Shown: positions 781 to 26,531 of the stretch, piece by piece
Layout: the number at the start of each line of letters is the position of its first letter
How positions within the stretch are numbered: position 1 is the first letter of the stretch
Source of the DNA: a virus
DNA length: 30,343 nucleotides
IMG/VR virus record: IMGVR_UViG_3300033149_003049
Coordinates: 1 to 30,343 of that record
Reading direction: 5' to 3' (one strand)
Program-made: the position numbers and the translations under genes
Notes under the pieces: model-generated
What the model saw: the letters and a program-made list of their open reading frames with translations, nothing else
The model's database searches: none
What the model was told of the DNA's origin: nothing

Positions 781-842
781 CCCCCTCCCCCTCTATTTCT
801 AGAAATGGTATCCACCCCATTTTTGAGGTCATTTCTACCTCT

Positions 843-10854: not shown

Positions 10855-10893
10855 TACTATGCTCCTCCTTTTCTATCTATTTTACACTCCTCT

Positions 10894-11925
10894 CTAACCT
10901 AATATATCCCCAGACCTAGTATTCACTAGCGTAATCATAAACGGCTCAGTGCAAGGCATGCCATTTGGAGTGGCAACACAAGCGTCCAATTGCAAAGTCA
11001 CTGTATGCCCTATCTTCCCGGGGCCTCCTACTGGCGCAGTTGCTGTGACAATCTTAGCTGAAGGGGCTTCTATTTTGAACATGTAACTGTTAGCATCTGT
11101 GAAGGTGATATCCAGCTTCTGTAGAGTGGCACTGTTAATTGCAGTAGTAAAATCATTCATGCTATACTTATCAAAAGTCAACTCCAGTGTAGCAGTGGGA
11201 AAACCACCCCCAGTTGGTTCACTAATATCATTATAACTGGCATCACGGTTCTCTTCCATTGGACGGTCAAAAGTCAACCTAATAGTATGTGGATATATCT
11301 TATCACTATCACTCAGTGCAGCCCCATCCCTGGCATTCATCCTAATCTTAGCATTATCATCAAATACCACGCAGTGATACCTGTCTGGATAGGTTACATT
11401 AGCTATCGTGTCTGTACTGTTTACCTGGCTCTCTGTTTCCCACTTATTGCCAGTGCAATTAAACTCTGCTGTAACAATCTCGCCTACCGTCGCATTAAAA
11501 GAAAAACCAGTAACCTTGAGACTGGGAATTTCCCATACTTTGTCAGTTTTCTTCTTGATTACAAACGTTCCAAACAGCCCATCATTATTTGGTGCAAGCC
11601 TAATTTTATGTTCCCACTTATCACTTCCACTGCTGATGCAGGTAGGGGTAGCTGTAGAACCCATTCCACAAGCAATCAGCTTATCCAACCCCATATACCG
11701 CATGTTTGCGCCTAATGTTCCTGAAGGTGCTGGATAAAAGGTATCAATCCGCTCAGTAATAAAGTTCACCCCCAAGGACTCATCTGCAATAGGCGTCCGC
11801 CCAATATCCCCTAGTGCCTCATTGGTAATCAACACTCCATCTCCACTTCCACACTCCACTGCTGTCCGCCAGCTAGCCGCCTTTTTAAATGCTGCTATAA
11901 TCTCTCTTCCTGTTATTGCTGCCAT
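10894..11925 (-). CDS. Major tail tube protein (343 aa)
   Basis: Position between the terminator-like neck gene and the chaperones; beta-rich; strong SD AGGAGGTGA; preceded by a copy of the conserved motif. Confidence 0.75.
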   Translation of the reverse strand: MAAITGREIIAAFKKAASWRTAVECGSGDGVLITNEALGDIGRTPIADESLGVNFITERIDTFYPAPSGTLGANMRYMGLDKLIACGMGSTATPTCISSGSDKWEHKIRLAPNNDGLFGTFVIKKKTDKVWEIPSLKVTGFSFNATVGEIVTAEFNCTGNKWETESQVNSTDTIANVTYPDRYHCVVFDDNAKIRMNARDGAALSDSDKIYPHTIRLTFDRPMEENRDASYNDISEPTGGGFPTATLELTFDKYSMNDFTTAINSATLQKLDITFTDANSYMFKIEAPSAKIVTATAPVGGPGKIGHTVTLQLDACVATPNGMPCTEPFMITLVNTRSGDILG

Positions 11926-11966
11926 TCTCTTTCACCTCCTATACTCTCATCATTACTTCTACCTAA

Positions 11967-11995
11967 TTAATAAGGAAATTAAGTCTAAAAATTTA
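11967..11995 (-). promoter_or_regulatory. Conserved 29-nt motif, copy 3 (TAAATTTTTAGACTTAATTTCCTTATTAA), upstream of the tail tube gene
   Basis: 19 of 29 positions are invariant across three copies, each at an operon-internal gene junction. Confidence 0.7.
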
Positions 11996-12451
11996 TGTGT
12001 CTTCAATGCAGTCATTTATTATCTGGTATTGAGCCGCCCAAAAAACTACCTGTGGGGTGGAATACAGCTCCCAAGCCCTCACTGGTTTGAGCGGTCTGAT
12101 GGATAGGCCAAAGGTCTTCTCCTTCAACTTCCCCATTACATCCTTCAATATTGTATATGCACCCTTATCTCCACCTCTAGCCTTTGACTGGTCTCGGTAA
12201 CTCTGGCTTATAATCAAGAGGTCAACCACCACAGTCTCCCGTGTACACTCTTGGTCCGCATACTCATACTCTGCTGAAGACACTTTTACCAACACGGCTG
12301 GAAACTGATTTACAAAAAACTTTGTCAGTGCCTCCTCACTAGCCAACTCACCCGCATACCCTTTCAGTGCCTTCAAGTACCCACCTTTTTCTTTTAATAA
12401 AGGTTCCAAAGCATCCAAAACCTTATCCTCATAATCCTTCAAACTATACAC
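11993..12451 (-). CDS. Mu gp37-like (DUF1834-like) tail terminator/neck protein
   Basis: Size, position and PAVLV...GAY.IL..V...L......I.PL.P pattern. Confidence 0.65.
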   Translation of the reverse strand: MYSLKDYEDKVLDALEPLLKEKGGYLKALKGYAGELASEEALTKFFVNQFPAVLVKVSSAEYEYADQECTRETVVVDLLIISQSYRDQSKARGGDKGAYTILKDVMGKLKEKTFGLSIRPLKPVRAWELYSTPQVVFWAAQYQIINDCIEDT

Positions 12452-12455
12452 TCTG

Positions 12456-12947
12456 TTATTCCTCTTTCATCACATGTCTACTAATTATCTTTACTACCAA
12501 ATCCCAATCCCCTTCCCATAACCCCTCAAACGGTAACAACATCCTCTTTGGGACATCACCCCAAGGGATAGGCGTCCCTCGTTTTGTCCTTCCATACTGT
12601 CCTTTTCTAGCTCCAAACTGATGAGTAGGGGCATATCTCACCTCAGTCCCCCACTCTACCCCTCGTTGACTAAAGGTGTAAACAAAACTTTGCTGTAATG
12701 TACCCATATCAGCCAATATCTTTGGTCTACCCTTACCTTTACCTTTCCTCCGCCTTGCAATGGTCACAGGGCTAAGGGGTTTCCAAGGCTGCCTGTATGG
12801 GTCATGTTCCCTCCTCCACCCCCTCTGCCATCTACCAAGCAATGCCTCACCTATCTCTCGCATTGCTGGGGCGAGGTCTCCCAATGCTCTTGCCACTACC
12901 TCAGCCTTTTTCCTTGCCTCTCTAGTATCTACCTCAAACTTTATCAT
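12456..12947 (-). CDS. Mu gpG-like virion morphogenesis (tail completion) protein
   Basis: P.....W.PLSP.T...R.....IL.D.G.L..S......V..GT...YA..HQFG......VP.R..L motif. Confidence 0.85.
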   Translation of the reverse strand: MIKFEVDTREARKKAEVVARALGDLAPAMREIGEALLGRWQRGWRREHDPYRQPWKPLSPVTIARRRKGKGKGRPKILADMGTLQQSFVYTFSQRGVEWGTEVRYAPTHQFGARKGQYGRTKRGTPIPWGDVPKRMLLPFEGLWEGDWDLVVKIISRHVMKEE

Positions 12948-12948
12948 G

Positions 12949-13224
12949 TCATTTCCACCAAATGGCCTTAGTCAGCACAGCAGTAAACCCACCGAAAAAC
13001 CCTGTCACTGCGCTCACCCCCCTATCTCTCCACCTACGTGTCTCCAATTTCCTAAACCGCTCCCCACACGCATGTTTCTGGGTAGACAGGCAGTCATTTA
13101 TGTTCACTATATACTCAAACAAAATATTCAACTTCACATTCACATCTGTAATCTGTCCAAAATCCTCTCTACTAATTGGTCTCATCCCTGGTGGCATTTT
13201 TCTCTCTCCTTTCTTTGTGGCCAT
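12949..13224 (-). CDS. Small protein with one C-terminal hydrophobic segment; possibly holin/XhlA-like
   Basis: Short coiled coil followed by VSAVTGFFGGFTAVLTKAIWWK. Confidence 0.45.
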   Translation of the reverse strand: MATKKGERKMPPGMRPISREDFGQITDVNVKLNILFEYIVNINDCLSTQKHACGERFRKLETRRWRDRGVSAVTGFFGGFTAVLTKAIWWK

Positions 13225-13229
13225 TCCCT

Positions 13230-13322
13230 TTACAGGGCTTCTAGGGATTGGATACCCAAGCCTTGTAGCCCCAAGGCTAAAATACTCTTGAAAGCATTAA
13301 TATCATGGTGCAAATAAATCAT
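13230..13322 (-). CDS. Micro-ORF (30 aa, MIYLHHDINAFKSILALGLQGLGIQSLEAL)
   Basis: ATGA overlap with the stop of the upstream gene; ends 5 nt before the next ATG. Confidence 0.4.
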   Translation of the reverse strand: MIYLHHDINAFKSILALGLQGLGIQSLEAL

Positions 13323-14128
13323 AAATCCCGCTCATCTTCCTCGTCATCAATACGGTCATCATCAATAAACTGCTCCTCATACTCTATCATCGCAAAGGTA
13401 GGGTGGTAGTTTTTAGTGCTAGACCAAACCTCCGTGCCAACTTTCTTCGCTATCACCTCTCCTGCTGTATTCACCAGAGTTAAGCTCCCCACCTCCAAAG
13501 CTGTAATAGTCTTTTCTATCTTCTCTCTCTTTCCCTCAATCCAATCAAGTAAATCAGCCCCTACATGAATAGCATGATCATCTAGTATCTCCACCAATGC
13601 CAATGTCTTACTAAGCTTACCAATCAATGGAGGAAAACTGTTTACACCAGTGGCAAAAGGGACAGAATACATGGAAGACAATCTAGCATTTATCACTGCA
13701 TCAGCATCAGCAATATACTGTCGTAAATCCTCATTAGTTAGCTCTAATTGGTCAAGCTTTTTATACAACCGACGCAAATCATTCGGGTGACTGTATAGGC
13801 CAGCCTCATCTGCAGTGGTCTCTACTACCTCAAACAGCCCCCGGCTGATGTAATCCTTATCCCCAACAGTTACCTTCCATACATAACTATACATGCCAAC
13901 CGTGGAAGGTAGAGTCTGGAGGACGTAGTAATCATAATCACTACTCTGCGATGCTGTAACACTGGACACTAGAGTTCCATTTTTGTCATAGATAGCTAGT
14001 AAAGGTTCTGTGCCTGGGGGAATACTAAAGCTAATGGTAAACTGCTTGGTATCCCCTTTCTCATACTTCTCATACTCTGTCTCTACCTCGCCAGCCATCC
14101 CCAAGTAGTCTTTTATCTCAAATGCCAA
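13319..14128 (-). CDS. Head-tail adaptor (Mu gp36/DUF1320-like) with an extra N-terminal beta-sandwich domain
   Basis: C-terminal Y....DL...........I.DA.A.I.A.L...Y.VP motif; the first ~100 aa are Ig-like (FTISF...YYV...VG.Y.Y.WKVT). Confidence 0.75.
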   Translation of the reverse strand: MAFEIKDYLGMAGEVETEYEKYEKGDTKQFTISFSIPPGTEPLLAIYDKNGTLVSSVTASQSSDYDYYVLQTLPSTVGMYSYVWKVTVGDKDYISRGLFEVVETTADEAGLYSHPNDLRRLYKKLDQLELTNEDLRQYIADADAVINARLSSMYSVPFATGVNSFPPLIGKLSKTLALVEILDDHAIHVGADLLDWIEGKREKIEKTITALEVGSLTLVNTAGEVIAKKVGTEVWSSTKNYHPTFAMIEYEEQFIDDDRIDDEEDERDL

Positions 14129-14140
14129 TGCACCCCCCTC

Positions 14141-16999
14141 CTATACATACTTACCTTCCAAGTCTTTTGTCTGAACCTTAATTCTACTCCTCAAATACTT
14201 TATCAAGTCCTCACTACTTGCAAACCTAGCCATCATAACTGTAGGACTACCATCTATCTGTCTATCTGCCTTCAATGCCCAAGCCACCTCAAACCCCCTA
14301 CCCAGTATAGCCAATGCCTCTGTGTAGTAAGGCAATCCATCCTCCTCCAAATGGTCACCAGAGCCAAGAAAATTCTCTTGAAACATCCTCACTGCCCGCT
14401 CACATAGCTCCACCACCTCTGGGGTCACTTGCCTTCCATTCCCCTCCAATATATACCGAGCCATGTGAACCCAATCTCTCATGATGAGGTACTTCCCCAG
14501 CGTCCGCTCTGGATACTTTTCCCTATCCCTCTTCACGAGGTTGATATTGCGATAGAACTTCCTCCGCCGTCTCTCCTCACTCAAATACCCATCATGAGCC
14601 AATCCCACATCAGCCAAACAAACTACCGGCACCACAGCCTCCTTGCCCGGTAGGCGTGGGTGCTCATGCACCATCCCCCAAAACTTAATCCCCAACCCAT
14701 TTCTAAACACCCTCACCGGCTGGTCAGGTTTAAACGGATGTTCTGGAAAGATGCTGAAATGATGTTGTTTTATCACATAGCCATTATACATATTAGTCCG
14801 CAAATATTTAAATAAATCTCTAGCCTCAATCAGCTCCTCATCCGCATCCATCCAAAGGATGAAATCAGTGGTAGCATGCTTTATGCATTCATTCCTCACC
14901 ACATCAAACCCTACCTCCAACGGGTTAGGTCCCTTGTATACCTTGTCTGTATACTGTTTTGCTATCTCTACCGTGCTATCACTACTACCTGTATCCATCA
15001 CAATAATCTCATCAAACGCACTAGCACTCTTCAATGCCCTATGTAACATTGCCTCAGCATCCTTTACTATCAAACAAGCTGCTATTGTTTGTCTAGGTCG
15101 TTGTATAAAGCACTTCCGTCCCATATCCACTTGTCCTACTTCAACACTGCTCTTCTGTCTATATGTAACAAAATGCCAACCCAACGGCTCACCATCCCTA
15201 GGGCTATTGCCAGCCAAGCCTACATTGACTGTGTATTCAGGTTTCTTACCAAACATATCCCGTAGGTCATGTCTATCAAAATGCCAAAAATGCCCTTTAT
15301 ACTTCAGCTCACCACCAGAAGCTCCCCAAGACCCAAACGGAACACTAATCAATACATGTCCACCTTCCTTTACCCACTTTTCTACTTTTCTCATTACTGT
15401 CCATGGTTGTCTAAAATGCTCTAAAATCTCAAAAGCCACTAAACAATCATATTGTCCAAGGACACTATTCTCATCCCCCACCACAAAATTAACATTGCTG
15501 TATTTGTTCAATCGCTTTGCCAGCTCCACTTTTTCTGACACTACCTCTACACCAGTGAAATGCACAGTGGGGAACTGTTTAGCTAGGTTAAAAACATATT
15601 GGCCTACATCACTCCCAAAATCCACTGCTGTCTTTATGTCTGGATGCTCCTTCAGGTAATCCACCAAAAACTGAAGCCTCACAGGGCTGACCATCCCCTC
15701 TATCTCTTCTATACTTTTCACCCCAGTAGGGCCTTCCTCTAGAAACTGCTCTGTGTAAAACTGTTTTACCCCCTCTGCAGCTCCCTGATATTGTTTGTCA
15801 ATCTCTACCCTTTCTTCCTCACCCATCAAGGCTCTAGCAGCCTCTATGTCTTCATAGTAAATAAAATGTTTTTTCAACCTTTCTTTGTCCTGTGTTTGTT
15901 CAGAAAAGAACTGATGAAACTTCTCCATCCACTGCCCCACTACCTTTCCCCAATCAAACTCCTCTGCTCTCTCCCTCCCCCGCTCTGCAAGTTGTCTCCT
16001 TTTGGATGGGCTTCTAGCCAAATAGAGAAGAGCCTTAATAAACCTGTCCTGGTAATCTGGGGTAGATGCCTGCCCTGATACAAAATATCCACAATCCCCC
16101 AACACCTCACGCAGTGCGCCTACATCATTACAAACAAAAACTGTTCCACTTGCCATTGCTTCCACTGCACTGATACAAAACACCTCTTCAAAATCACTAC
16201 AATAAGCATATATCCCTGCACTTTGGTACTGTTTATAAAGCTCCTGTTTATTCAGATGTCCTAGGTTAGTACAGTTAGGTAGCTCTTCAATCCTACCCCA
16301 AAGATACTCATACAGCCCCCTCATCTCAGGCACAGTGTTATCATACCCAGCTACATAGAGATGAAACCTAGGCTCTATCTTTAGTAACTTCTCCATTACC
16401 CCATCAGGCCCTACCAAATTAACCAGCCCACGCTCTGGTCTGGCACAATAAAGTAACCTGTATGGGTCTCCTTCACCAAATGGGATTTCCTCAACTGATA
16501 CCCCATTATGTATTGGCCAGAATACCTGCTCTGGTAGCCCGTATACCTCCCTTTGTTGCTCTGCATGCCACTGGCTTACTGTGACCACTCTGTCTACATT
16601 CCACATTACTTGGTGTACACTGACCTTGTTTCTCTTTAGGGCCAGATCATGGTTCCACAGTATATTCAACCTGCTGCAAGCCCTCCCAGCGAAAGCCTGA
16701 GGCCACCGTTGGACAATAGTTATGTCATGTGGAAAGCTGGTGATATATTTAGATGCCTGAGTTAGAGGTCTATATATTACTCCATCATAAACCCCAGGGC
16801 CACTAGCAGGGGGGACATCACAGTTACAAAACACTGTCACCCTGTTCCCTAGCTGTGCTAAATGCTTAGCCAAACACAACCCGCATGTTTCACTCCCACC
16901 AAGGCTATGCTTATTCAAACTGTCACCGCTAAATGCCATCCCTGGCACCACCAACACTACATCAAAAGTATAGCTCCTCCTCATATCCTTGCTCCTCAT
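14141..16999 (-). CDS. Tri-domain GT4 glycosyltransferase - class I SAM methyltransferase - GT2 glycosyltransferase (952 aa)
   Basis: GT4: GGSE, EX7E motif EVFCISAVE.MASG. Methyltransferase: DFGSDVG at about aa 460, FEILEH. GT2 from about aa 637: ACLIVKD..., DTGSSDST, WMDADE, GMVHE. Confidence 0.88.
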   Translation of the reverse strand: MRSKDMRRSYTFDVVLVVPGMAFSGDSLNKHSLGGSETCGLCLAKHLAQLGNRVTVFCNCDVPPASGPGVYDGVIYRPLTQASKYITSFPHDITIVQRWPQAFAGRACSRLNILWNHDLALKRNKVSVHQVMWNVDRVVTVSQWHAEQQREVYGLPEQVFWPIHNGVSVEEIPFGEGDPYRLLYCARPERGLVNLVGPDGVMEKLLKIEPRFHLYVAGYDNTVPEMRGLYEYLWGRIEELPNCTNLGHLNKQELYKQYQSAGIYAYCSDFEEVFCISAVEAMASGTVFVCNDVGALREVLGDCGYFVSGQASTPDYQDRFIKALLYLARSPSKRRQLAERGRERAEEFDWGKVVGQWMEKFHQFFSEQTQDKERLKKHFIYYEDIEAARALMGEEERVEIDKQYQGAAEGVKQFYTEQFLEEGPTGVKSIEEIEGMVSPVRLQFLVDYLKEHPDIKTAVDFGSDVGQYVFNLAKQFPTVHFTGVEVVSEKVELAKRLNKYSNVNFVVGDENSVLGQYDCLVAFEILEHFRQPWTVMRKVEKWVKEGGHVLISVPFGSWGASGGELKYKGHFWHFDRHDLRDMFGKKPEYTVNVGLAGNSPRDGEPLGWHFVTYRQKSSVEVGQVDMGRKCFIQRPRQTIAACLIVKDAEAMLHRALKSASAFDEIIVMDTGSSDSTVEIAKQYTDKVYKGPNPLEVGFDVVRNECIKHATTDFILWMDADEELIEARDLFKYLRTNMYNGYVIKQHHFSIFPEHPFKPDQPVRVFRNGLGIKFWGMVHEHPRLPGKEAVVPVVCLADVGLAHDGYLSEERRRRKFYRNINLVKRDREKYPERTLGKYLIMRDWVHMARYILEGNGRQVTPEVVELCERAVRMFQENFLGSGDHLEEDGLPYYTEALAILGRGFEVAWALKADRQIDGSPTVMMARFASSEDLIKYLRSRIKVQTKDLEGKYV

Positions 17000-17058
17000 C
17001 TCTCCTCTATATTATTTATTTGTTTCTTCCTGCACATCAAGCATCCCTCATATTCCAT
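16996..17058 (-). CDS. Micro-ORF (20 aa, MEYEGCLMCRKKQINNIEER)
   Basis: TGATG overlap with the upstream stop and ATGA overlap with the downstream start; spans the gap exactly; has CxxC. Confidence 0.3.
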   Translation of the reverse strand: MEYEGCLMCRKKQINNIEER

Positions 17059-17423
17059 CACTTCCCCCAAGATGCCTTCCCCCTATATTTTTTATTATAA
17101 ATCTCCCATAACCTCTTCATTATCTTCTCATACCTTGCAACCCACACCCTGTCCCAGTCGCTGTCCAAGCCTTCATGCGAGGCTTTCGCCTCAGCTATGA
17201 AAACAAGGTCAGATATAAGTTGCTGTCTCTCCACTTCACCATTATCCAAATAATCAGCAATAGCGTGGAACCGCTCTGCCAGCATGGCATCACGGCTGGT
17301 ATGCTGCATTCCATGCAATCTGGCATCCTCTAATAACCACTGCACCTCTTTAGAGCAATGAAAAGATGCACAGGCATAGGCCATAAAGACGCAAAGGAAT
17401 AACAGCACCGTTCTACGGAACAT
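17058..17423 (-). CDS. Hypothetical exported/membrane-anchored protein (121 aa)
   Basis: Signal-peptide-like N-terminus MFRRTVLLFLCVFMAYAC with a possible lipobox Cys. Confidence 0.55.
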   Translation of the reverse strand: MFRRTVLLFLCVFMAYACASFHCSKEVQWLLEDARLHGMQHTSRDAMLAERFHAIADYLDNGEVERQQLISDLVFIAEAKASHEGLDSDWDRVWVARYEKIMKRLWEIYNKKYRGKASWGK

Positions 17424-18126
17424 AAATCCCTCCTTGTGTCTGCTTCCAAGGCACTTTCGTGTATATCCAGCTATGTGGAAATCCTCTTAACATGCGATAA
17501 ATGGGTGAGCGATGCATATTTTCACGGATTTCATCCTGACTTAACGCATAATTATGAATACAAGGACTAGCAATTATGCCCTGGAAATACATTTCACTCA
17601 GTGTATTGTAGTAAAATCTCCCTATAACTGTTTTGGGAGTTGAATTATAGGCTAAGCCTCGTGTCTTTATATCTTCAAAAACACCATTAACATAAAGCTT
17701 ATTAGTGTCCTCTTTGTGAATTACAACTATATAATACCATTTGCGCATAAGTGGAAACCAAGAGGTCTCAACATAAGTGCAACCATCACTGTCACCAACT
17801 AGTGCGGAAATATTATGGCTAGTGCTGATTGACAAGTTAATCCCATGTTTGTAATCTGACTTATTTGTAATAATTCCATTCCAATCTTCTAATCTGTAAG
17901 CACATGCCCATACTCCGATAGTAATCTCTTGAGGATACAAACCCTTCTTCTGCCCACAATCAATATAATCAGTAGCCCAAGTAAACCTGTATCCCATTAC
18001 TCCAGGTGCAATCATATATGGCCTTGCGCCGCCGTAAGGCGTCCCGTGGTTGCCCTTTCTTGACAGGTCAACCCATTTGCCAGAGCGGACATCCAGTGGG
18101 TGATATGACAAGTCCAGGACTTTCAT
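17413..18126 (-). CDS. LamG/concanavalin A-like domain protein (237 aa)
   Basis: DLS..GNHGT, ITIGVW, WYYIVV......LYVNG, IG......F.G.I....I.N.ALS..EI pattern of LamG-like jellyrolls. Confidence 0.85.
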   Translation of the reverse strand: MKVLDLSYHPLDVRSGKWVDLSRKGNHGTPYGGARPYMIAPGVMGYRFTWATDYIDCGQKKGLYPQEITIGVWACAYRLEDWNGIITNKSDYKHGINLSISTSHNISALVGDSDGCTYVETSWFPLMRKWYYIVVIHKEDTNKLYVNGVFEDIKTRGLAYNSTPKTVIGRFYYNTLSEMYFQGIIASPCIHNYALSQDEIRENMHRSPIYRMLRGFPHSWIYTKVPWKQTQGGIYVP

Positions 18127-18296
18127 TCTGTTACTCCTACTTTCTCGGCAATTTTCTTCTGCCTGATAATTAACTCTTTAAACTTAGCCAAAAATATCTT
18201 GTTATGGTCAACTGGGTCAGGCACTTCTTTAATAATCTCCTCTACATGCACTCCGCCCAGTTTGTTTTTTGTCCGTTTGTATTCTTTAACTTTCAC
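18123..18296 (-). CDS. Small protein (57 aa, GTG start, MKVKEYKRTKNKLGGVHVEEII...); absent from the ORF track
   Basis: SD AGGAGG 5 nt upstream of the GTG; ATGA overlap with the LamG gene. Confidence 0.6.
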   Translation of the reverse strand: MKVKEYKRTKNKLGGVHVEEIIKEVPDPVDHNKIFLAKFKELIIRQKKIAEKVGVTE

Positions 18297-18336
18297 ATTT
18301 ACCTCCTAAAATCCAAGATAACTGTCATAACTGCCT

Positions 18337-18945
18337 CTATCTCAGAAACAATTCTATATAACTATCTGCACTTCCCCTTGAACAATTGAGCCTCATCTTT
18401 GCATTCTCAGTAGTGGCGATGTAACCATAAACTCTAACCCTTAAAGCCAACCTCTCATCTGCTGCAACTGTAAAGCCTGTACTCAAATCCAAAAATGCCT
18501 GTCCTGAGCACGTTTGGTAATCAGCAGAATTGGTAGAAAAGTTAGGCGTGGCATCAGCACTCACTTTACTGGTGAAATTACCTGAACTGTCCATCACACC
18601 AAGATTGAAAGTAGCCTTCGTCCAATAAATATTGCCATCAGTCTCCCCAGTTCTAGCAATGCTCACAGAACAAACTGCACGAACTGCCTGTGCTCCAATC
18701 TGTCTCGGCCGACCCACCAAATCAGCCAACACAAATGTCTTGTCTATCTGCAGAGCCTCACTAGTATCTGTAATTCCAGTCTTTTCCTCATAATCTAAGT
18801 CACTAGTGTCTGAATCCTCTAAATCTGATGGACTAGGGTTTTCCATCAACAAATATGTATGTGTAGAACCCCAAGGGTATGCGTCATTAACCTTCTGCGC
18901 AACAAGAATGGTCGAGCCCAACAAATCCTTTATCCAAACTCTCAT
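18337..18945 (-). CDS. Hypothetical protein (202 aa), possibly virion-associated beta-sandwich
   Basis: SD AGGGGGA; Ser/Thr/Asp-rich, beta-strand pattern; lies in the post-capsid island. Confidence 0.6.
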   Translation of the reverse strand: MRVWIKDLLGSTILVAQKVNDAYPWGSTHTYLLMENPSPSDLEDSDTSDLDYEEKTGITDTSEALQIDKTFVLADLVGRPRQIGAQAVRAVCSVSIARTGETDGNIYWTKATFNLGVMDSSGNFTSKVSADATPNFSTNSADYQTCSGQAFLDLSTGFTVAADERLALRVRVYGYIATTENAKMRLNCSRGSADSYIELFLR

Positions 18946-18962
18946 AGCCGTATCCCCCTACT

Positions 18963-19154
18963 TTATACTCTGCTCCCCCTAGCAATCTCCTCTTCCTGTT
19001 TTTTCAGCCGCCGCCTAGCCAACTGAACCTCCCTCACTACCCGCTTTCCCCCACTCTTTTTTAAATACTCCAACACTCTGTCTAAATTCCTCTCTAACAC
19101 ATCCACTTGACGCTGCAACTTAGCCAAATCAGCCTGTAAATATAAAATCTCCAT
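18963..19154 (-). CDS. Small coiled-coil protein (63 aa)
   Basis: SD GAGGAGGT; heptad pattern. Confidence 0.55.
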   Translation of the reverse strand: MEILYLQADLAKLQRQVDVLERNLDRVLEYLKKSGGKRVVREVQLARRRLKKQEEEIARGSRV

Positions 19155-19177
19155 TCTTCACCTACCTCCTCTCACTT

Positions 19178-19219
19178 AAAAAAATAGGGTAGAGGCCGAG
19201 GAGCAAAACCCCTACCCTA
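19178..19219 (-). terminator. Intrinsic terminator after the major capsid gene
   Basis: Minus-strand RNA UAGGGUAGGGG-13 nt loop-CCUCUACCCUA (11-bp stem, one G-U pair) followed by U7. A second hairpin TGGCAT/ATGCCA lies at 19225..19240. Confidence 0.8.
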
Positions 19220-19285
19220 CAAAATGGCATGCACATGCCAGAAAAGACTCTCATCCAAGCCGCTCCTCTAACTACCACTACCACC

Positions 19286-20266
19286 CTATTGAGAACTCCC
19301 AACATTCACCCTCAATACAGCTAGGTTGCTATCCACGATTTTTTCATCCTGATAGTAACCAACATGGATATCCTGCCTGCCTGCCTTGGGGTCAAAGGGG
19401 AACACCCTAACAACCCAGTTAGGCATATTAGGCACTGTCCATCTAAAGCTGTATCCAAAACTGGGCACATCAATAGCTGGTTTGGGTGGAATGTAGGCAT
19501 AGAGCACGCTGTCATTCCATATTTGGGAAAGAGACATAGTAGCCCCTTTCGCAGCAGTGTTATAGTACGCCCCGCCAATCAAGACCTTATCCACCTCAAG
19601 CAGAGTAGCCACCTGGTCTACCTTGGGGATGCCCCCACCATGTGGATATAGAAGCTCCCGTATCTCTTTACTATCACGGAACTTACGCCATGCTGCCTTT
19701 CCAAATACTATTACATTGGGTTTATATCCACTTATATCCTCCAGCATAGCTATATCACTTTGTGCATCCTCATAGGGGTCAGCATTATCTGTACCCCAAG
19801 CACTAGCCGTGGTAGTATATGTACCCACATTACTGGTGCTGGTCACCATACGAGCTACACGCAACTCATAGTTAATCAACAGTAAATCAGTGATAAAATT
19901 AGCCCGTCTCCGCCTAGACCGTATAGCCACATCAGCATTAGCTGCCTCCTCAGCAGTGATGTAAGTCCCTAGGGCATAATTAACACAGTTATACCCATCA
20001 CTACTTACATCAAAACTGACCATGTTAGGTGGCTGCCCAGGTACACGGTAATCACGAGTCTCCCTAAACTTATCCCCCTGATTGAACACATAGAAATTGT
20101 CACTCTTTTTTGTCACAGGGACAATGGGGAAAATCTGGTCTGCAATAAACCCCTGTGGCCTGTAATCTATTGCTAGATTACTCAGCGCTGCATCTATGTG
20201 TACATCATCAGGGCTCATATCATACATCTTCACCGTATATATTCTTCCCATTTCACTCATCTTCAC
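19286..20266 (-). CDS. Major capsid protein (phage capsid E-like, HK97 fold); probable start is the ATG at 20260
   Basis: DVHID..LSN.AI.Y....FIADQIFP.VPV motif; size; position after scaffold and cement; followed by a terminator. Confidence 0.88.
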   Translation of the reverse strand: MKMSEMGRIYTVKMYDMSPDDVHIDAALSNLAIDYRPQGFIADQIFPIVPVTKKSDNFYVFNQGDKFRETRDYRVPGQPPNMVSFDVSSDGYNCVNYALGTYITAEEAANADVAIRSRRRRANFITDLLLINYELRVARMVTSTSNVGTYTTTASAWGTDNADPYEDAQSDIAMLEDISGYKPNVIVFGKAAWRKFRDSKEIRELLYPHGGGIPKVDQVATLLEVDKVLIGGAYYNTAAKGATMSLSQIWNDSVLYAYIPPKPAIDVPSFGYSFRWTVPNMPNWVVRVFPFDPKAGRQDIHVGYYQDEKIVDSNLAVLRVNVGSSQ

Positions 20267-20274
20267 TTACCTCC

Positions 20275-20691
20275 TTATGGTACGCTAGTAACATTCGCTA
20301 CCGCATTTGCACAATGGATAAAAGCCACTGCTTGTCCACCGCTACTTGCACCTTCAATTACCCATCCAATTGTTCTCTTTCCACTTCCAGTTGTGCTACA
20401 ACTCAATGCCCATCCGCCACTTCCACAATAAATTTTATCACCAGCACTCACTGCACCCCCAACCTTTACTGGCGTCACACCAAGCGGGCAAACCTCAGCC
20501 CATTCACTTGCCTCTGGTTTGTTCTGTAACACCCCAGCGCACACTTGGGTGGGGGCTGCATCCACTACATCAACCTGAGCATCACCAGATATCTCCACTA
20601 AGAAATACTGTTTCCCGCTCAGGTCGTTCTCAGCCTTGGCTGTAAAATTGCAAGGCTGTCCACCTTTATATGGATTTCCACTATATGTCAT
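20275..20691 (-). CDS. Capsid cement/decoration protein (DUF2190-like)
   Basis: A..DL....Y.LV......GVLQNKP.......V..LG...V..G.AV.AGD pattern; directly upstream of the capsid gene. Confidence 0.75.
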   Translation of the reverse strand: MTYSGNPYKGGQPCNFTAKAENDLSGKQYFLVEISGDAQVDVVDAAPTQVCAGVLQNKPEASEWAEVCPLGVTPVKVGGAVSAGDKIYCGSGGWALSCSTTGSGKRTIGWVIEGASSGGQAVAFIHCANAVANVTSVP

Positions 20692-20704
20692 CGCTCTTTA
20701 CCTC

Positions 20705-21343
20705 CTATTCTTTAAACTCTGCATACCGCTTTGCTAGGTCTGGATCAGCTTTCAACACCGCTTCAAATGCCTCTGCATACTTAACTCTATGCTCTGCCAT
20801 ATACGCCTTCACCTTAGCATCCACCTCTTGCCCCACACTAGCAAACTCACCATCACCTTTTACATTACCCAACTGTTCGGTGAAAGAAACCTTGGAGTCT
20901 TGCCTTGTAAGGTAAATTCTAATCATATCAGCAAGACTAGCCTCTTTACTCTCACCCTTCTCATCCTTGACCTGATATTCTTTCTTCTCAGGTGCATAGA
21001 GAAGTAATTGGGTAACCAGTTCCTCATCCCTTGGCAGAACTTTGCCCTGTGCCTTGAGGTCTTTGACAAAGGTCTGGACTTCCATTGTCTTCTGCTTCAA
21101 CTCCAACTCCCTATTCTTTGCCTCTACCTCTTCAGCCTTTTTCCGCAGCTGTTCTGCCTCATCCCTGTACTTTTTCAGCTCACTAATTTCAGCCTCTTTT
21201 GCCTCAAGCTCTTGCTGGAGCTTTTTGGCTTCTTCCTCAGTAGCCTTCCTCTGCGCCTCCTTTAACTGCTCTACCTGTCCAGTGAGCTGTGCAATCTCCT
21301 CATCCTTCCTTTTAATCAACTCAGCAAATTCTTTCTCTGTCAT
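20705..21343 (-). CDS. Putative separately translated scaffold (212 aa) from an internal in-frame start, Met441
   Basis: AAGGAGG lies 8 nt upstream of the in-frame ATG at 21343, exactly where the coiled coil begins. Confidence 0.6.
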   Translation of the reverse strand: MTEKEFAELIKRKDEEIAQLTGQVEQLKEAQRKATEEEAKKLQQELEAKEAEISELKKYRDEAEQLRKKAEEVEAKNRELELKQKTMEVQTFVKDLKAQGKVLPRDEELVTQLLLYAPEKKEYQVKDEKGESKEASLADMIRIYLTRQDSKVSFTEQLGNVKGDGEFASVGQEVDAKVKAYMAEHRVKYAEAFEAVLKADPDLAKRYAEFKE

Positions 21344-22663
21344 CTCTTCATCCTCCTTCAATGAAAATAAATGTTTTGGGATTTCCTCATCTGGAACCCC
21401 CAGTTTTCTATATAAAGCCACCAGCTTTTGCTTGACTTTTTTAGTCTCGCCCGGTGGTAACTCTACCTTCCTACCCCTAAACCCACCTGGGCTAAGTGCT
21501 GCAACAGCCCTACCCAACTGAACTCTGGTTACTTTTTTATCAGGGTCCTCCCAAATCCGTAACTTCCAGGTGCTAGGTTTTTCTGGGTCTGGAACATATA
21601 AATAAGCTTCTTTTGGATACTGTACCCCATCCTCAGTCTTCATCACCTTAGCAAACCCCCTCCATTCCTCCACCGTATACGGTCTGCTTTCACTAAGTGG
21701 TAACGGGGGCGGGTTTAACCACTTTTTTGCCTCCTCCATCGTCCACTTCCTACGGTCAAATAACCAACTCTGTATATACACCCGCTCATCCTGTCCCTCT
21801 TTCAACACTCCCCCTACATACCGCACGCCCTCAGCACCGCTAAAAGTATTCTCCTTCAACGTGGTAACATCAAATGCGCTCTCAGGATGCACTTCTGCCA
21901 CTACATGCTCTAAATTCTCTTTCCACACTATCATATACTCCCTCCTTTCCTCACCAAGCTCATACACATGCAACTCCCCACTCTCATTCTGCTGGGTGAG
22001 GAACTTTGATATATCAGCCAAGGTGGTTACTGCTGGGATGCTTGAACCCAGTATGGCCACTGCACTGAGTACCCTGGGGTATTTCTTTCCCTCATCCCTG
22101 TAATTCCACAACACCTCTGCACTCCTTCTACCATACAACCCATTCTTAATCGCCTGCATAAGTGTTTTAGGGACATTGCTAATTGTAGCCAGTAGTTTCT
22201 TCCCCTTGCGTTTTAGCTCTGTAACAAAGCCAAGTGCCGGCTGCTCTGTAGCATCTTTAGGCTGAGCCTTATGACCTAACTTCACCACCGGTTTCCATTT
22301 CCCTTTTAACTCCTTAAAAGCCCTTACCATCTCGTCTAAGTCTGCCTCAGTATACTTATCACCATTCCACTCCCCTGCAGCAAAAACCTCTACATCCTTT
22401 AACACCCCTTTACTCTCATACTCCACTAGCACTACTTCACCCACATCATTGAACACCACATGGGGTGTCTCATCCACCTCTGCATTCACTTTTCTAGCCA
22501 CTGCATTAGCCTGCCGTATAGCACTAACCTCACACTCTTCCTGTTTCCTACCCTGCTTTAGACATCTATCAAGTGCACCATTGGCCACTCTTACCCAAAC
22601 CTCTTTCTGTTTATCATTTAGTCCTTTTATATGTTTCTCTACATCTTCTTTATTCCATGGCAT
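20705..22663 (-). CDS. Mu gpI-like prohead protease-scaffold fusion with extra domains (652 aa)
   Basis: Protease aa ~88-220 (VEVFAAGEW, KLGH131, S181AE, L.AVA.LG...PAV); C-terminal coiled coil; ChaB-like N-terminus. Confidence 0.82.
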   Translation of the reverse strand: MPWNKEDVEKHIKGLNDKQKEVWVRVANGALDRCLKQGRKQEECEVSAIRQANAVARKVNAEVDETPHVVFNDVGEVVLVEYESKGVLKDVEVFAAGEWNGDKYTEADLDEMVRAFKELKGKWKPVVKLGHKAQPKDATEQPALGFVTELKRKGKKLLATISNVPKTLMQAIKNGLYGRRSAEVLWNYRDEGKKYPRVLSAVAILGSSIPAVTTLADISKFLTQQNESGELHVYELGEERREYMIVWKENLEHVVAEVHPESAFDVTTLKENTFSGAEGVRYVGGVLKEGQDERVYIQSWLFDRRKWTMEEAKKWLNPPPLPLSESRPYTVEEWRGFAKVMKTEDGVQYPKEAYLYVPDPEKPSTWKLRIWEDPDKKVTRVQLGRAVAALSPGGFRGRKVELPPGETKKVKQKLVALYRKLGVPDEEIPKHLFSLKEDEEMTEKEFAELIKRKDEEIAQLTGQVEQLKEAQRKATEEEAKKLQQELEAKEAEISELKKYRDEAEQLRKKAEEVEAKNRELELKQKTMEVQTFVKDLKAQGKVLPRDEELVTQLLLYAPEKKEYQVKDEKGESKEASLADMIRIYLTRQDSKVSFTEQLGNVKGDGEFASVGQEVDAKVKAYMAEHRVKYAEAFEAVLKADPDLAKRYAEFKE

Positions 22664-22685
22664 TCTACTTCTCCCTCTTTATTGT

Positions 22686-22714
22686 TTTATAGGGTGATTT
22701 AGTTACAAAATTTA
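22686..22714 (-). promoter_or_regulatory. Conserved 29-nt motif, copy 2 (TAAATTTTGTAACTAAATCACCCTATAAA), upstream of the protease gene
   Basis: Same blocks and spacing as the copies at 25966..25994 and 11967..11995. Confidence 0.65.
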
Positions 22715-22828
22715 ATCCCCCTTCTTTCCTCCTTTCTTTTTTCCATACGGGGGGGTGGCTATTGAGCTATCATCTATCCCATCTGTTTTTATTTCCTCAT
22801 CTTCATCCTTCCTTCTAACACACCACAT
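22712..22828 (-). CDS. Micro-ORF (38 aa, MWCVRRKDEDEEIKTDGIDDSSIATPPYGKKKGGKKGD)
   Basis: TGATG overlap with the portal-fusion stop; its TAA is the first three bases of motif copy 2, as with the upstream genes at copies 1 and 3. Confidence 0.45.
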   Translation of the reverse strand: MWCVRRKDEDEEIKTDGIDDSSIATPPYGKKKGGKKGD

Positions 22829-25800
22829 CATTCCTTCTTTCCTCCTGGCAAAACACGATAATATCTAAAATTATATCGTTTGGACACCTTTTGCATAATC
22901 TCATGCGTATGGTCTTTCCAGATTGCCCATTCATCCTCTCCCGCTTTCCATCTTGACTCATACTTATCCATTAATGTATCTCTCTCTGCACCCCAACTAT
23001 AAAAAGCCTCCTCAGCCACAGACGTATAATCTATCCCTACTTTCTTCTCCATCACATACTTAGTCCCATCATGCCCATATACCACCATTCTTCGTATCCC
23101 CTGAGATTGGCAAAAAAGATATACATCTTGTGCACTAAAAGAGGCGCTGCCAGGATGGTTATGTATCCCAACTAACTTCCTTTTAGGGTTCTCCATCAAT
23201 GCAATTGTCTCCTCATCAAACTTCACTACACTCTTCCCCCCTACAAGCACCTTCCCCACTTGTCGTCCCTCCTCCATGTCTACCAAATAAGCTACTTCTA
23301 CCCCTTTACTCTTCCCAATCTCCAATGCACTCTCCCCTAACCTATCCACCACCTCTTCCACAACATACTGTGGAGGGGTAGAAGATGGGCCCCCCACTCT
23401 ACCCCCAAACTCTTCTGGTATCAGTGCCAACAGCTCATCCTTCTCCTGCCTAGTAATAGGGGTGAAGGGGTGTGTCATCATGTCATCCCTAGTTACTGGG
23501 ATCAGCAATGAACGGCAATTATGCACTACCACTCCATTAACCACATAACTCTCATCCCCCTCCACACTTAGGTTATATAACCGCTGGTGGTACTTCATCT
23601 GGCTAGTCCCTACAGCTATTACCACTGCTGTCACAAACCCCCCATCCTGCCATACTGTTATCCTATCACCCACCTCTAACCTCTTCACTGGTACCCAACC
23701 AGGGGTAGCCAACACTGGATGGTCTGGGGTAACTGGAGGGAGGGTTATAGTACCTGTTCCTATATCCAGTATCACCTTATATGCCAACCCTTTATAGGTA
23801 GTGGGGGCTTGGCGGTGGTGGACAAAAGTAACAGGCATATACCTGCCCAAATGGGTCAGCACTTTATCACCCAGCTTTATATCTTTAATTGGCTTGTAGC
23901 CTTTATCTGTTAGCACAGGGGTTTTAGGGGAGAGAAAACAATTGTGGTGCAGCGGAGGGATAAAACGCTCCATGTCTGGGTCATTCTTAGGTATCACTTT
24001 CCCATCAGCCTTTCTGCATATCTCAGTCGTCCTGCTGTCCAATATAGCAGAGAACTCCATCGCAGGGACATAATCCCCAGCTTGCTGCATCATGGATACC
24101 CGCCCATGATTATATGCTGCAGTGGTATTTGTCCGTACCAACTTTTCTATACTATACGGAGTGACAGCCCCTGGTACTAGTACCGCCGGGTCACCTACAT
24201 ATGGTTGATAGGCTTGTTGGATTTTCTGTATGGTCTCTTTCAGTGGAATGCCCTTTTTAAGGGACTCCATCAGGATGTTTTGCACCTTAAAACGGAGTTG
24301 TGAATTCAATATTTCCTTTGTTTGTATGCCTTTGCTCTTTAGCCATTCCAGCGCTGCTGTAGGTGCAAAAGGGTTAAGTCTCTTGTAGTGCTTCTTCCCT
24401 ATCTCCCTCTCTACCTCTTTCCTCCCCTCATAAAAAGCCAAACGGAGCATCTCAGTGATAACCTCTTGCAACTTACCACCATACTTCAGCTCTAGCTTTT
24501 GTATCAGGGTAGGGCGCAACTCCCCTTTCCCCATTCTCTTACTCACAAAATCAATCAACCAGTCCCTTTGTTGCTTTATTACCCCTGTTATCTTCTCCAC
24601 GCTGTTCCTATCCAACTGGTCTAGGTATCTTTGTATCCGTTCAAATTGACATTTTTTCTCATATGGGCTGAGGGGGCGGAAATAAGTAGTGTAAGACCTA
24701 AGCTGATATCCCCCCTCTTCCTCCTCTCTTTCAGGCCAGCCAAGATGTTGCCGTAGCTTATTCTCATCTTTAAGAGTAGGTGATATGACTCCTTTTTCCA
24801 CTGCATCAATAAACAACTTAGCCATAGCCTGTCGCTTTTCCTCATCCATTGGTCTGAATTTAAATTTGGGGTATTTGTCCACAGCATAATTAAAACTGAC
24901 TAGCTCCCTTACCAACTGCTCATTCAGCACCTCTTCCAAGTCCCGCCTATGTTTGTCTACAATCTGGAGAAACACATCAAAATGAACCTTCCCCTGACTG
25001 TAACTACCGTAATGTCCTTGTTCACTTACCCCTAACAAATTGGGTATTAACAAACTACGTGCGATAGCCATATCATGGACAGCAATGGCATCCTTGTATG
25101 TAGACGCCCCCCGTCCACTCACCTCTGGAAAGTCCAGCTCTACCCCATCAGGTAATACTATACTAGTTCTAGCCTGTAGGTTGTCTAGAATATTTTTTAG
25201 GGTTGTCCTTTCATTTTTAGTCAAAGCCTTCTTTAGTGTCCCCACGGCAGGCGGCATACTATACCGTTCTAGATAGATGTTATACAGTTTTATTATCACG
25301 TCCTTGCTCCACCACGCTCTGTAGGCTTCTCGTAAATCACTTACACCGTACCAATTATCAAACTCTTTGCGGTAAGTGTAAATAATGAACTTATTTGGGG
25401 GGAGCTTACGTGTGCCGAAGCCCTGCCACACCCCATTCTTTCGTAAATTACCAAACTCATCCACATCAAAATCCACCCCATGGGGTTTCCTAGTCTTTAT
25501 TGCCTTTACCCCTACCTTTCCACCATAGGGCTCAGTGCCTGGGAGCAGGGTATAAACTTTTTCACTCACACTAAATCCATAGTCAAATGCTGTCATAATG
25601 TTCAACAACACATCTTCAAACGTCCCCTTTACTCTCTCTAAGTTATGTTTCACAAACTCTGCTACTTCTATATCAGCCTCATCATCACTAGCTGGCTCTA
25701 CCACCCAGCCTGAACACAACACAGCAAATTTACGTAGGTTCATGCATCCCTTCACTGTGTCATCCCTGCGTATTTTGTCATATATCCTCAACCCACCTTT

Positions 25801-25947
25801 TCTACTTGCCAGCGTATCAGGATTATAGGGGGTAAAAAGAGCAGTAGGGTATAACAGGGTCTCCCTGCTCATCAGCTCTTTATCAAGCTGAGCCTCCCTG
25901 GTAGGGGTGGTCTGGAATATCTTTTTAATATGACCAAAAATAGACAT
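22828..25947 (-). CDS. Portal (Mu gp29/DUF935-like) - MuF (gp30-like) - mini-intein - JAB/MPN-like domain fusion (1039 aa)
   Basis: Portal aa ~30-410 (YG.SDLR.AY..WW.K...LYN.YLERY..P). MuF: RTNTT.AYN.GR, FSAILDSRTT.IC...DG, PPLHHN/CRS. C-terminal E884...H929-N-H931-P...S938-x2-D941. Confidence 0.88.
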   Translation of the reverse strand: MSIFGHIKKIFQTTPTREAQLDKELMSRETLLYPTALFTPYNPDTLASRKGGLRIYDKIRRDDTVKGCMNLRKFAVLCSGWVVEPASDDEADIEVAEFVKHNLERVKGTFEDVLLNIMTAFDYGFSVSEKVYTLLPGTEPYGGKVGVKAIKTRKPHGVDFDVDEFGNLRKNGVWQGFGTRKLPPNKFIIYTYRKEFDNWYGVSDLREAYRAWWSKDVIIKLYNIYLERYSMPPAVGTLKKALTKNERTTLKNILDNLQARTSIVLPDGVELDFPEVSGRGASTYKDAIAVHDMAIARSLLIPNLLGVSEQGHYGSYSQGKVHFDVFLQIVDKHRRDLEEVLNEQLVRELVSFNYAVDKYPKFKFRPMDEEKRQAMAKLFIDAVEKGVISPTLKDENKLRQHLGWPEREEEEGGYQLRSYTTYFRPLSPYEKKCQFERIQRYLDQLDRNSVEKITGVIKQQRDWLIDFVSKRMGKGELRPTLIQKLELKYGGKLQEVITEMLRLAFYEGRKEVEREIGKKHYKRLNPFAPTAALEWLKSKGIQTKEILNSQLRFKVQNILMESLKKGIPLKETIQKIQQAYQPYVGDPAVLVPGAVTPYSIEKLVRTNTTAAYNHGRVSMMQQAGDYVPAMEFSAILDSRTTEICRKADGKVIPKNDPDMERFIPPLHHNCFLSPKTPVLTDKGYKPIKDIKLGDKVLTHLGRYMPVTFVHHRQAPTTYKGLAYKVILDIGTGTITLPPVTPDHPVLATPGWVPVKRLEVGDRITVWQDGGFVTAVVIAVGTSQMKYHQRLYNLSVEGDESYVVNGVVVHNCRSLLIPVTRDDMMTHPFTPITRQEKDELLALIPEEFGGRVGGPSSTPPQYVVEEVVDRLGESALEIGKSKGVEVAYLVDMEEGRQVGKVLVGGKSVVKFDEETIALMENPKRKLVGIHNHPGSASFSAQDVYLFCQSQGIRRMVVYGHDGTKYVMEKKVGIDYTSVAEEAFYSWGAERDTLMDKYESRWKAGEDEWAIWKDHTHEIMQKVSKRYNFRYYRVLPGGKKE
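23518..23940 (-). mobile_element. 141-aa mini-intein (Hint domain, no homing endonuclease) inside the MuF domain
   Basis: Block A C670-FLSPKTPVLT, block B VTPDHPV (TxxH), block F LYNLSVEGDESYVVNG, block G VVHN810 followed by C811. Removal restores PPLHHN-CRSLLIPV. Confidence 0.93.
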
Positions 25948-25965
25948 TTTTTCCTTTCTATCTAG

Positions 25966-25994
25966 TTAATAAGGCAATTTAACTGCAAAATTTA
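25966..25994 (-). promoter_or_regulatory. Conserved 29-nt motif, copy 1 (TAAATTTTGCAGTTAAATTGCCTTATTAA), upstream of the portal gene
   Basis: Aligns with two other copies; similarity to copy 3 continues for 10 nt downstream (YTAGRTAGAA). Confidence 0.7.
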
Positions 25995-26531
25995 GCTCTC
26001 CATCATCAGCTTTTTCAACTCCGCCTTAAACCGCCTAACTACATTGCTCACTGTGGCCTCAGATACCTGCATCATCGCTGCTACCTCTTTTTGTGAGTAC
26101 CCACCAAAAAGAGACAACACAACCATAGCCCGATGCCCTTCAGTAAGGGTGGACAAAAGAGCCTGGTATTGGTCATCTGATACCCAAGAGGGTATAGACG
26201 CTGCCTTCCCCTCTTCCACTCTACTTTCTACCTGAGCAGTAACAGGGTCAGTAGAAAACTCCCTCAATACCCGCTGCATTATCTTGGACAAGTATTGGAC
26301 AACATCCCCTGCTGGCCTATTCACATCCACTTTTCCCACCTTCACCAACTGCCACAAACGCAATGAAGCCTCAGCCTGCATATCCTCCCAGTATTGCTCT
26401 TTGCCTTTATGTTCAGAGCGGAGGAAATACCCCACCATCACCTTTACCAATGGCCAAAGCGCCTCAAACTGCATCTTTTTCAGCTCCTCCTGTACCCGCT
26501 TCATTTGCTCATTCAGGTTATCTACTTCCAT
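25992..26531 (-). CDS. ECF-like RNA polymerase sigma factor (probable start MEVDNL at 26531)
   Basis: Region 2-like EDMQAEASLRLWQ...Y.SKI and region 4 HTH LTEGHR.MVVL..FGGYSQKEVA.MM.VSEATVSNVV.R; SD GGAGGGGGG. Confidence 0.78.
   Translation of the reverse strand: MEVDNLNEQMKRVQEELKKMQFEALWPLVKVMVGYFLRSEHKGKEQYWEDMQAEASLRLWQLVKVGKVDVNRPAGDVVQYLSKIMQRVLREFSTDPVTAQVESRVEEGKAASIPSWVSDDQYQALLSTLTEGHRAMVVLSLFGGYSQKEVAAMMQVSEATVSNVVRRFKAELKKLMMES

Follow-up and report, generated by a model that had tools for sequence, protein, structure and literature searches.

A 29-nucleotide (nt) motif occurring three times in the window, meaning the whole 30,343-base stretch of viral DNA analysed here (IMG/VR record IMGVR_UViG_3300033149_003049), was found to be a real, non-random, position-specifically constrained and directional element tied to the structural genes downstream of it. 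It is probably the 5' control element of three morphogenesis units and a late-promoter class. That the motif is a promoter of some kind can be held with good confidence. The more specific reading, judged from sequence, that the copies are late promoters read by the phage's own sigma factor, encoded next to copy 1, is one on which we are evenly divided.

The pattern TAAATTTT-N5-TWAATYN-CCYTATWAA matched at exactly three places in the window, all on the minus (gene) strand (Table 1), and no fourth site was present with up to 3 mismatches to the pattern. A relaxed-pattern scan gave three sites with 0 mismatches and a next-best match with 5, both in the window and in a related genome (G001, IMGVR_UViG_3300021495_000001; 82,535 bp, with a terminal overlap and rated complete) that shares 85-91% DNA identity with the window across the shared part. 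An earlier note on this DNA, made from its letters alone, had placed the copies at the portal, protease and tail-tube junctions, 18-41 nt before key structural genes, with 19 of 29 positions invariant and copy 1 starting at the stop codon of a sigma gene resembling those of the extracytoplasmic function (ECF) group, and had proposed scanning the genome and relatives. All of these points were borne out, the distances being 18, 22 and 41 nt and the invariant columns numbering 19/29 by column count; a further occurrence of TAGATAGAA that the note had placed at 10871-10879 is also present. Each copy is intergenic and on the coding strand, with a Shine-Dalgarno sequence between motif and start codon, and the motif is absent from coding regions. 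A shuffle test was set aside as circular, the three sites being themselves the source of the pattern, and was replaced by an independent chance estimate. The expected number of 29-mer triples with at least 19 invariant columns was 0.014 in the window and ~3e-5 in ~1 kb of intergenic DNA.

In the 82.5 kb of G001 the motif is present only at the three homologous places. Orthologs of copy 1 were found in G001 and in two metagenome contigs (L118 and L119), with differences confined to positions 10, 11 and 21, and the copy-2 ortholog in G001 differs only at spacer positions 10-13 and positions 19-20. Five orthologs were available for copy 3 (L140-L144; L140, L142, L143 and L144 are IMG/VR fragments), and the six copy-3 sequences vary within the motif at positions 10, 12, 23 and 26 only, with the 23 nt leading from the motif to a conserved ribosome site, TATAGGAGG, largely rewritten in the orthologs. 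Differences between the window and G001 fell at 1 of 57 positions that are invariant between the paralogous copies versus 7 of 30 variable ones (Fisher p=0.002), and the blocks at positions 1-8 and 21-25(29) are exactly 12 nt apart in 14/14 sequences. As position 26 is T, A or G in the orthologs, there is no TATWAA hexamer on the -10 side; the constant core there is YCYTA, with NWAA after it. The -10 box CCYTATWAA proposed earlier, with position 26 as an invariant T, thus survives as its YCYTA core but not as a full block. Similarly, the extension YTAGRTAGAA is present past copies 1 and 3 in the window but is not kept in the copy-3 orthologs, and lies outside the conserved element.

Neither the 29-nt motif nor the second, TATAAT-class motif described below was found at 80 loci of distant relatives recognised by capsid similarity (38-65% identity), and the motif is therefore specific to this lineage. 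A homologue of the sigma gene was not detectable in five parent records of distant relatives, which were searched whole; the nearest distant relative (G002, 65% capsid identity) ends within the portal gene, making the absence of a sigma gene there meaningless. A scan of IMG/VR with the motif pattern returned only G001 and unrelated single matches.

At copy 3, the haplotypes L142 and L143, which come from one sample, lose their similarity to the window 1-2 nt short of the motif. The upstream sequence in both is an IS605-type TnpB gene, divergent to the tail-tube gene (PF01385, 6e-26; PF07282, 4e-23). Because this insertion sequence (IS) replaces all upstream sequence and the motif stays with the tube gene, the motif belongs with the gene downstream, and because the junction lies 1-2 nt before it, the left edge of the motif is T1. 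The leading TAA had been described as the stop codon of the upstream open reading frame (ORF). This is the case in the window, but at copy 2 the TAA ends a small 38-aa ORF and not the portal gene, which has its TGA at 22828-22830. In L142 and L143 there is merely a 5-codon open frame before the TAA and no ORF ends at it, so that stop-codon overlap is not a general feature; it is economy of space, outside the function of the motif. The arrangement in these haplotypes is in keeping with a 5' control element for the gene downstream and makes read-through from upstream unlikely at their copy 3.

The layout of the motif is that of a sigma-dependent promoter, with two blocks at a fixed spacing of about two helical turns, in one orientation and upstream of genes. 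The ECF promoter pattern is AAC-N16/17-CGT, and the spacing of the motif also fits this pattern. The sigma28 consensus is TAAAGTTT-n11-GCCGATAA (PMC2859248). Compared with it, the TAAATTTT block is identical at 7/8 positions to the -35 element, the 11-nt spacing is the same and CC is at the same position, but the -10 element GCCGATAA with its CGA core is absent, only (N)CC being common and the remainder being YTANWAA. A housekeeping sigmaA promoter (TTGACA-17-TATAAT) is not apparent. The hexamer TANWAA at positions 24-29 ends in A in 14/14 sequences and lacks the -7 T, the hexamer 17 nt upstream of it (TAAATT) matches the sigmaA -35 element at 2/6 positions, and a scan with the sigmaA consensus gave no good match at the three motif sites. 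Thus, by sequence comparison, the motif has sigma28/ECF-type promoter geometry and is a poor sigmaA promoter. Elsewhere in G001, the divergent inter-arm region (26536-26677; L009:6536-6677) includes a TTGACT-17-TATAAT promoter of canonical form, which points towards the replication arm and has an UP-like A/T-tract stretch ahead of it, and as this textbook promoter is present the host enzyme presumably uses the usual consensus.

Other kinds of element were looked for at the motif sites and rejected. The RNA at the motifs has no stable or conserved structure, with folds weaker than shuffled sequence (z +0.85, +0.64 and +1.12), and the motif regions had 0 matches in Rfam at E<=1, and a structured RNA element or intrinsic terminator was rejected on these grounds. 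No palindrome was seen on inspection. An inverted-repeat operator was ruled out as the TTAA...TTAA symmetry exists in two copies only, and an antisense plus-strand promoter was ruled out as there is no usable -10 element, both by inspection.

The gene ending at copy 1 encodes a protein of 179 aa, most likely starting at 26531, where an ATG stands behind the Shine-Dalgarno sequence AGGAGGGGGG. The product passes the sigma-70 family model TIGR02937 (E=2.1e-11; 43.7 bits against a cut-off of 42.9), with residues 31-183 aligned to profile positions 8-164 of 165, and also matches Sigma70_r4_2 (7e-9) and phrog_1740 (7e-12). An AlphaFold2 (AF2) model, with a mean predicted local distance difference test (pLDDT) score of 78.7, shows two helical bundles (residues 7-99 and 127-186) joined by a flexible linker, disordered at 103-119, and no sigma3 or sigma1.1 domain. 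The best Foldseek matches to the model are all sigma factors, the top-ranked being of the ECF type (6dv9_F SigL at 1e-4, SigH, AlgU, sigmaE, CnrH, SigK and SigW); the alignments span ~170-190 columns, and the TM scores are low (~0.3) since the relative orientation of the domains differs. The 179-aa protein is therefore predicted, from sequence and structural model, to be a genuine two-domain sigma factor of ECF architecture.

Relatives of this sigma factor are few. A HMMER search of 1.8 billion representative proteins found one near-identical cluster and, below 1e-10, a single remote relative (P0004; 30% identity, 4e-18) from a 1-kb contig, and the near-identical protein is encoded on ten more contigs. 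No homologue was found among cultured phages (tblastn against 50,697 phage records), and profile scans for sigma relatives in IMG/VR and in 401 genomes from the phylum of a Thermodesulfobacterium metagenome-assembled genome (MAG; G007) gave only generic matches at the sigma4 level. FliA_WhiG (TIGR02479) was not among the 25 best NCBIfam matches for the window sigma factor, and P0004 scored 21.4 bits against this family, the cut-off of which is 189.6. No anti-sigma factor was identified, and the sigma gene has no copy of the motif upstream of it in G001, where as in the window there are three sites per genome; the autoregulation and anti-sigma factor of ECF systems are hence not seen here. A ~66-aa ORF (window 26518-26718, minus strand) overlaps the sigma start by 14 nt, and its protein is kept in G001 with synonymous changes. 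This protein could be a sigma partner or an anti-sigma factor.

The genes of the window form the morphogenesis arm of a phage of siphovirus type, in which the head genes are Mu-like. A cluster of SPASM, methyltransferase and glycosyltransferase genes is followed by the small sigma gene and by a portal-MuF fusion with a Hint/intein insert, then by the protease/scaffold, cement protein, major capsid protein (phrog_1005, 1e-62) and a large glycosyltransferase gene, and lastly by Mu gp36-, G- and gp37-like neck genes, the tail tube, chaperone, tape measure and distal tail. In G001, the minus arm starts with terS and terL and continues with glycosyltransferases, the sigma gene and all the structural genes, and the genes of the plus arm are for replication (SNF2 helicase, primase, DnaB-like helicase and DNA polymerase A). 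A Pfam scan of ten G001 ORFs gave no match to an RNA polymerase, most other ORFs, including most of those in the plus arm, being unannotated; just one ORF in the plus arm is as large as a polymerase (860 aa), and it encodes DNA polymerase A. For these reasons the phage probably depends on host core RNA polymerase. Downstream of the major capsid gene, two tandem hairpins and a U7 run make a strong intrinsic-terminator candidate, which would likely close the copy-2 transcription unit. The blastn similarity between window and G001 breaks at 22722, resuming 8 nt upstream of copy 2, so that a mosaic boundary falls at the motif; window positions 22723-23386, where the small ORF and the C-terminal region of the portal fusion lie, gave no blastn alignment with G001.

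Table 1. Positions of the motif copies, the sigma gene and other features in the window or, where indicated, in related sequences.
Feature	Coordinates	Strand	Details
Whole window (IMG/VR record)	30,343 bases		~31% complete by estimate; every real gene on minus strand
Motif copy 1	25966..25994	-	TAAATTTTGCAGTTAAATTGCCTTATTAA; starts at sigma gene stop codon, ends 18 nt before portal ATG
Motif copy 2	22686..22714	-	TAAATTTTGTAACTAAATCACCCTATAAA; ends 22 nt before protease/scaffold ATG
Motif copy 3	11967..11995	-	TAAATTTTTAGACTTAATTTCCTTATTAA; ends 41 nt before tail-tube ATG
Phage sigma factor gene	25992..26531	-	179 aa; ATG behind Shine-Dalgarno AGGAGGGGGG; open frame reaches 26555
Portal-MuF fusion gene with Hint/intein insert	22828..25947	-	Portal_Mu 4e-69, Phage_Mu_F 4e-12, Hint_2/PT-HINT; first gene past copy 1
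38-aa ORF	22712..22828	-	TAA is first triplet of copy 2; read from sequence; no Pfam match
Head maturation protease/scaffold gene	20705..22663	-	phrog_976 1.5e-34; first gene past copy 2, then cement/decoration and major capsid
Two tandem hairpins and U7 run	19177..19240	-	3' of major capsid gene; fold -31.9 kcal/mol, z = -2.67; terminator candidate
Mu gp37-like gene	11993..12451	-	PF08873 2.5e-10; TAA is first triplet of copy 3
Tail tube gene	10894..11925	-	PF18906 5e-9; first gene past copy 3, then chaperone and tape-measure (PHROG matches)
TATAAT-class site, window	840-880	-	single copy
TATAAT-class sites, G001	34159-34196, ~39063-39100, 45775-45812, 54085-54122	+	
TATAAT-class site, G001	72094-72135	-	
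TnpB gene (OrfB_IS605 and Cas12f1-like TNB domain)	L142:25-1098	-	also L143:1-92
Spacer-like pieces, window	~12893-12928, 13873, 22156, 25489-25526		

In the mechanism proposed, the three elements would serve as late promoters, one for each morphogenesis unit (portal; protease-cement-capsid; tail tube-chaperone-tape measure). The block TAAATTTT at positions 1-8 would be the -35 element, and the -10 element would be made up of YCYTA (positions 21-25) and the NWAA after it. Transcription would then begin ~5-9 nt downstream on the minus strand, near 25957-25961, 22677-22681 and 11958-11962, giving leaders of ~10-36 nt that still hold the Shine-Dalgarno sequences. The reader would be host core RNA polymerase carrying the phage two-domain (sigma2-sigma4) factor encoded directly upstream of copy 1. 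As the sigma gene lies in an operon starting with terS-terL and the glycosyltransferase cluster, the scheme would be feed-forward and not autoregulated; an earlier promoter would make the sigma factor, which would turn on the late promoters. We infer initiation at the motif, its pairing with the phage sigma factor and a role for the spacer block TWAATY from the sequences. The sigma/late-promoter pair suggested in the earlier note is therefore retained as a constrained, directional, bipartite element with a genuine ECF-architecture sigma gene adjoining it, but the box limits, the stop-codon overlap and the extension need revision. A proposal of narrower scope is that a nearly orphan minimal sigma factor reads a tripartite 29-nt promoter made up of a sigma28-like -35 block, the spacer block TWAATY and YCYTA; this we regard as tentative, not far short of an even call.

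A second repeated promoter-like class, CATTAAGGAAAT-N11-GAGTATAATAATATAGAGG with a perfect TATAAT, was found in G001, where four to five copies precede genes of the replication arm and a single post-tail gene. The class is probably middle or early, and because its TATAAT is perfect, sigmaA seems the likelier reader. A degenerate version, AATAATATAGAGG, lies just before the large glycosyltransferase gene of the window (~17000-17025). The right half of the 29-nt motif recurs as a partial, inverted copy, CTTAATTGCCTTATAGC, on the plus strand of G001 at 72148-72176, ~40 nt upstream of a TATAAT-class site and antisense to the local genes.

Possible clues to the host came from metagenome contigs (run X2) in which short phage-matching pieces are flanked by GTTTCAATTCCTTATAGGTAGGCTCAAAAC and CTTTATATCCCACATGGTTCAGATAATA, which resemble clustered regularly interspaced short palindromic repeats (CRISPR). 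The pieces between them look like spacers against this phage. The first repeat, GTTTCAATTCCTTATAGGTAGGCTCAAAAC, is also present in Thermodesulfobacterium, Atribacter, a Clostridiales DTU070 MAG and WOR-3. However, 0 of 126 spacers from array stretches fetched from the repeat-sharing genomes match the phage, and no capsid-gene homologue indicative of a prophage was found in five of these genomes.

The motif might instead be a promoter for host RNA polymerase with housekeeping sigmaA, helped by a phage activator bound to two TAAATT-like half-sites (positions 1-6 and 14-19). It would then resemble late activation by lambda cII, Mu C/Mor or RinA/ArpU, and the sigma-like protein could itself be the activator. 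The half-sites are direct repeats 13 bp apart, a conserved block is found inside what would be the spacer, and the phage has Mu-like head genes (Portal_Mu, Mu F, Mu gp36/gp37). In Mu, an activator works at a few late promoters, one of them before the protease gene. RinA-type late activators are known in phages (PMC3152322). However, the -10-like hexamer has no -7 T in 14/14 sequences, T, A or G at its third position and no TG extension, 13 bp is not a helical repeat, and the adjoining protein is more than a helix-turn-helix protein, as it has a sigma2-like domain and its residues 31-183 pass the sigma-70 family model. We consider sigmaA with an activator rather unlikely. It is also quite unlikely that the promoter belongs to a host FliA/sigma28-type factor, with the phage making use of the signal of a host regulon, and that the phage sigma factor has another target, such as the TATAAT class. 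The -35 block and spacing match TAAAGTTT-n11-GCC..., but YTA stands where the CGA core is expected, and the two-block motif is no more frequent than a reversed control in the five candidate-host genomes, which have the CRISPR repeat in common. The host itself is not established (no phage-matching spacers fetched and no capsid-gene homologue in five genomes), and dependence of late genes on a motility sigma factor would presumably be unusual.

Readings in which the motif is not a promoter were weighed on the same evidence. Its use as another kind of DNA element, be it a repressor operator, a loading site for a nucleoid protein or anti-termination factor, or a recombination boundary for module exchange, is improbable to a marked degree. 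Homology between window and G001 does break right upstream of copy 2, an IS landed exactly at the edge of copy 3, and the partial inverted copy in G001 (72148-72176) is upstream of a TATAAT-class site. All copies of the motif, however, keep a strict single orientation and a fixed place just upstream of a Shine-Dalgarno sequence and start codon, with a bipartite spacing typical of promoters and no palindrome. An element acting in RNA, as a processing or translational site within a long polycistronic late transcript, was the alternative offered in the earlier note. The motif is AU-rich and unstructured like RNase E/Y-type sites, and every window copy is placed between a stop codon and the ribosome-binding site that comes next. 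This reading was not backed by the folds (z +0.6 to +1.1) or by Rfam, the distance to the start codon ranges from 18 to 41 nt with intervening sequence free to change, and in L142 and L143 the source of the upstream transcript has been replaced by a divergent IS and the motif kept. It is thus highly improbable.

Several observations weigh against late promoters read by the phage sigma factor. All motif-bearing genomes are ~85-98% identical, so that the comparative depth is shallow and part of the conservation reflects recent common descent, and the sigma gene and motif co-occur in one lineage only, which gives no independent co-variation. The conserved block inside the spacer (T14, A16, A17 and T18) is unusual for an ECF or sigma28 promoter and may be where a different factor binds. 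All five candidate-host genomes (5/5) encode a true FliA/WhiG sigma28 above the family cut-off, and a host FliA/WhiG might read a TAAA...CC promoter. The TATAAT class could be the phage sigma factor's real target, which leaves this factor with two candidate targets. No public RNA run was listed as containing the phage.

Among known systems, T4 late promoters (TATAAATA), recognised by gp55, lack a -35 element and depend on gp33 and the sliding clamp. The motif is like them an AT-rich, phage-specific late signal before structural genes, and copy 2 contains TATAAA, but its -35-like block is the best-conserved part and TAT is not conserved, as position 26 varies. The Mu late promoters (Plys, PI, PP and Pmom) use sigma70 and the dimeric activator C protein. 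A handful of late promoters at module starts, one before a protease gene, is a feature in common with Mu, as are the Mu-like head genes; unlike Mu, the adjoining regulator is sigma-like and the -10 element is not of the sigma70 type.

The closest parallels in principle are phiEco32 gp36 and phage 7-11 (consensus TAATGTATA), where a small phage sigma factor redirects host core enzyme to a few short, phage-specific motifs before structural genes. The motifs of phage 7-11, too, were sequence predictions (PMC4331800). However, the sigma factor here has no detectable sequence relation to theirs, their promoters have a single element in the -10 region whereas the motif is bipartite with a -35 block, and their promoters also precede the sigma gene, which is not the case here. 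The resemblance to sigma28/FliA/SigD promoters extends to 7/8 positions of the -35 block, the 11-nt spacing and the position of CC, but YTA replaces the CGA core, an extra conserved block is present inside the spacer and the phage factor has no sigma3 domain. ECF (group 4) sigma/promoter pairs share the two-domain sigma2-sigma4 architecture and a bipartite promoter with rigid spacing, but the typical AAC/CGT, an autoregulatory copy and an anti-sigma factor were not found here. Xpf of the PBSX element is a positive control factor of group 4 type from a phage-like element (PMC10141391).

A phage sigma cascade is in itself textbook biology (SPO1, T4, phiEco32/7-11 and PBSX Xpf), and what is new here is the lineage, the unrelated sigma factor and the consensus. 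Sigma/promoter pairs of this kind are useful as orthogonal expression parts, and if the reading is true, this one would be a compact, highly specific, orthogonal and possibly thermostable expression switch from a vent/sediment phage. It would also be a case in which a -35 block and spacing like those of sigma28 are used by an ECF-architecture sigma factor without sigma3. If the pairing is real, a new and very specific pair, whose three sites per genome stand far apart in score from the next match, would join the few phage sigma factors with known targets, and it would define the late switch of this uncultured phage lineage of ~82 kb from hydrothermal and sediment settings.

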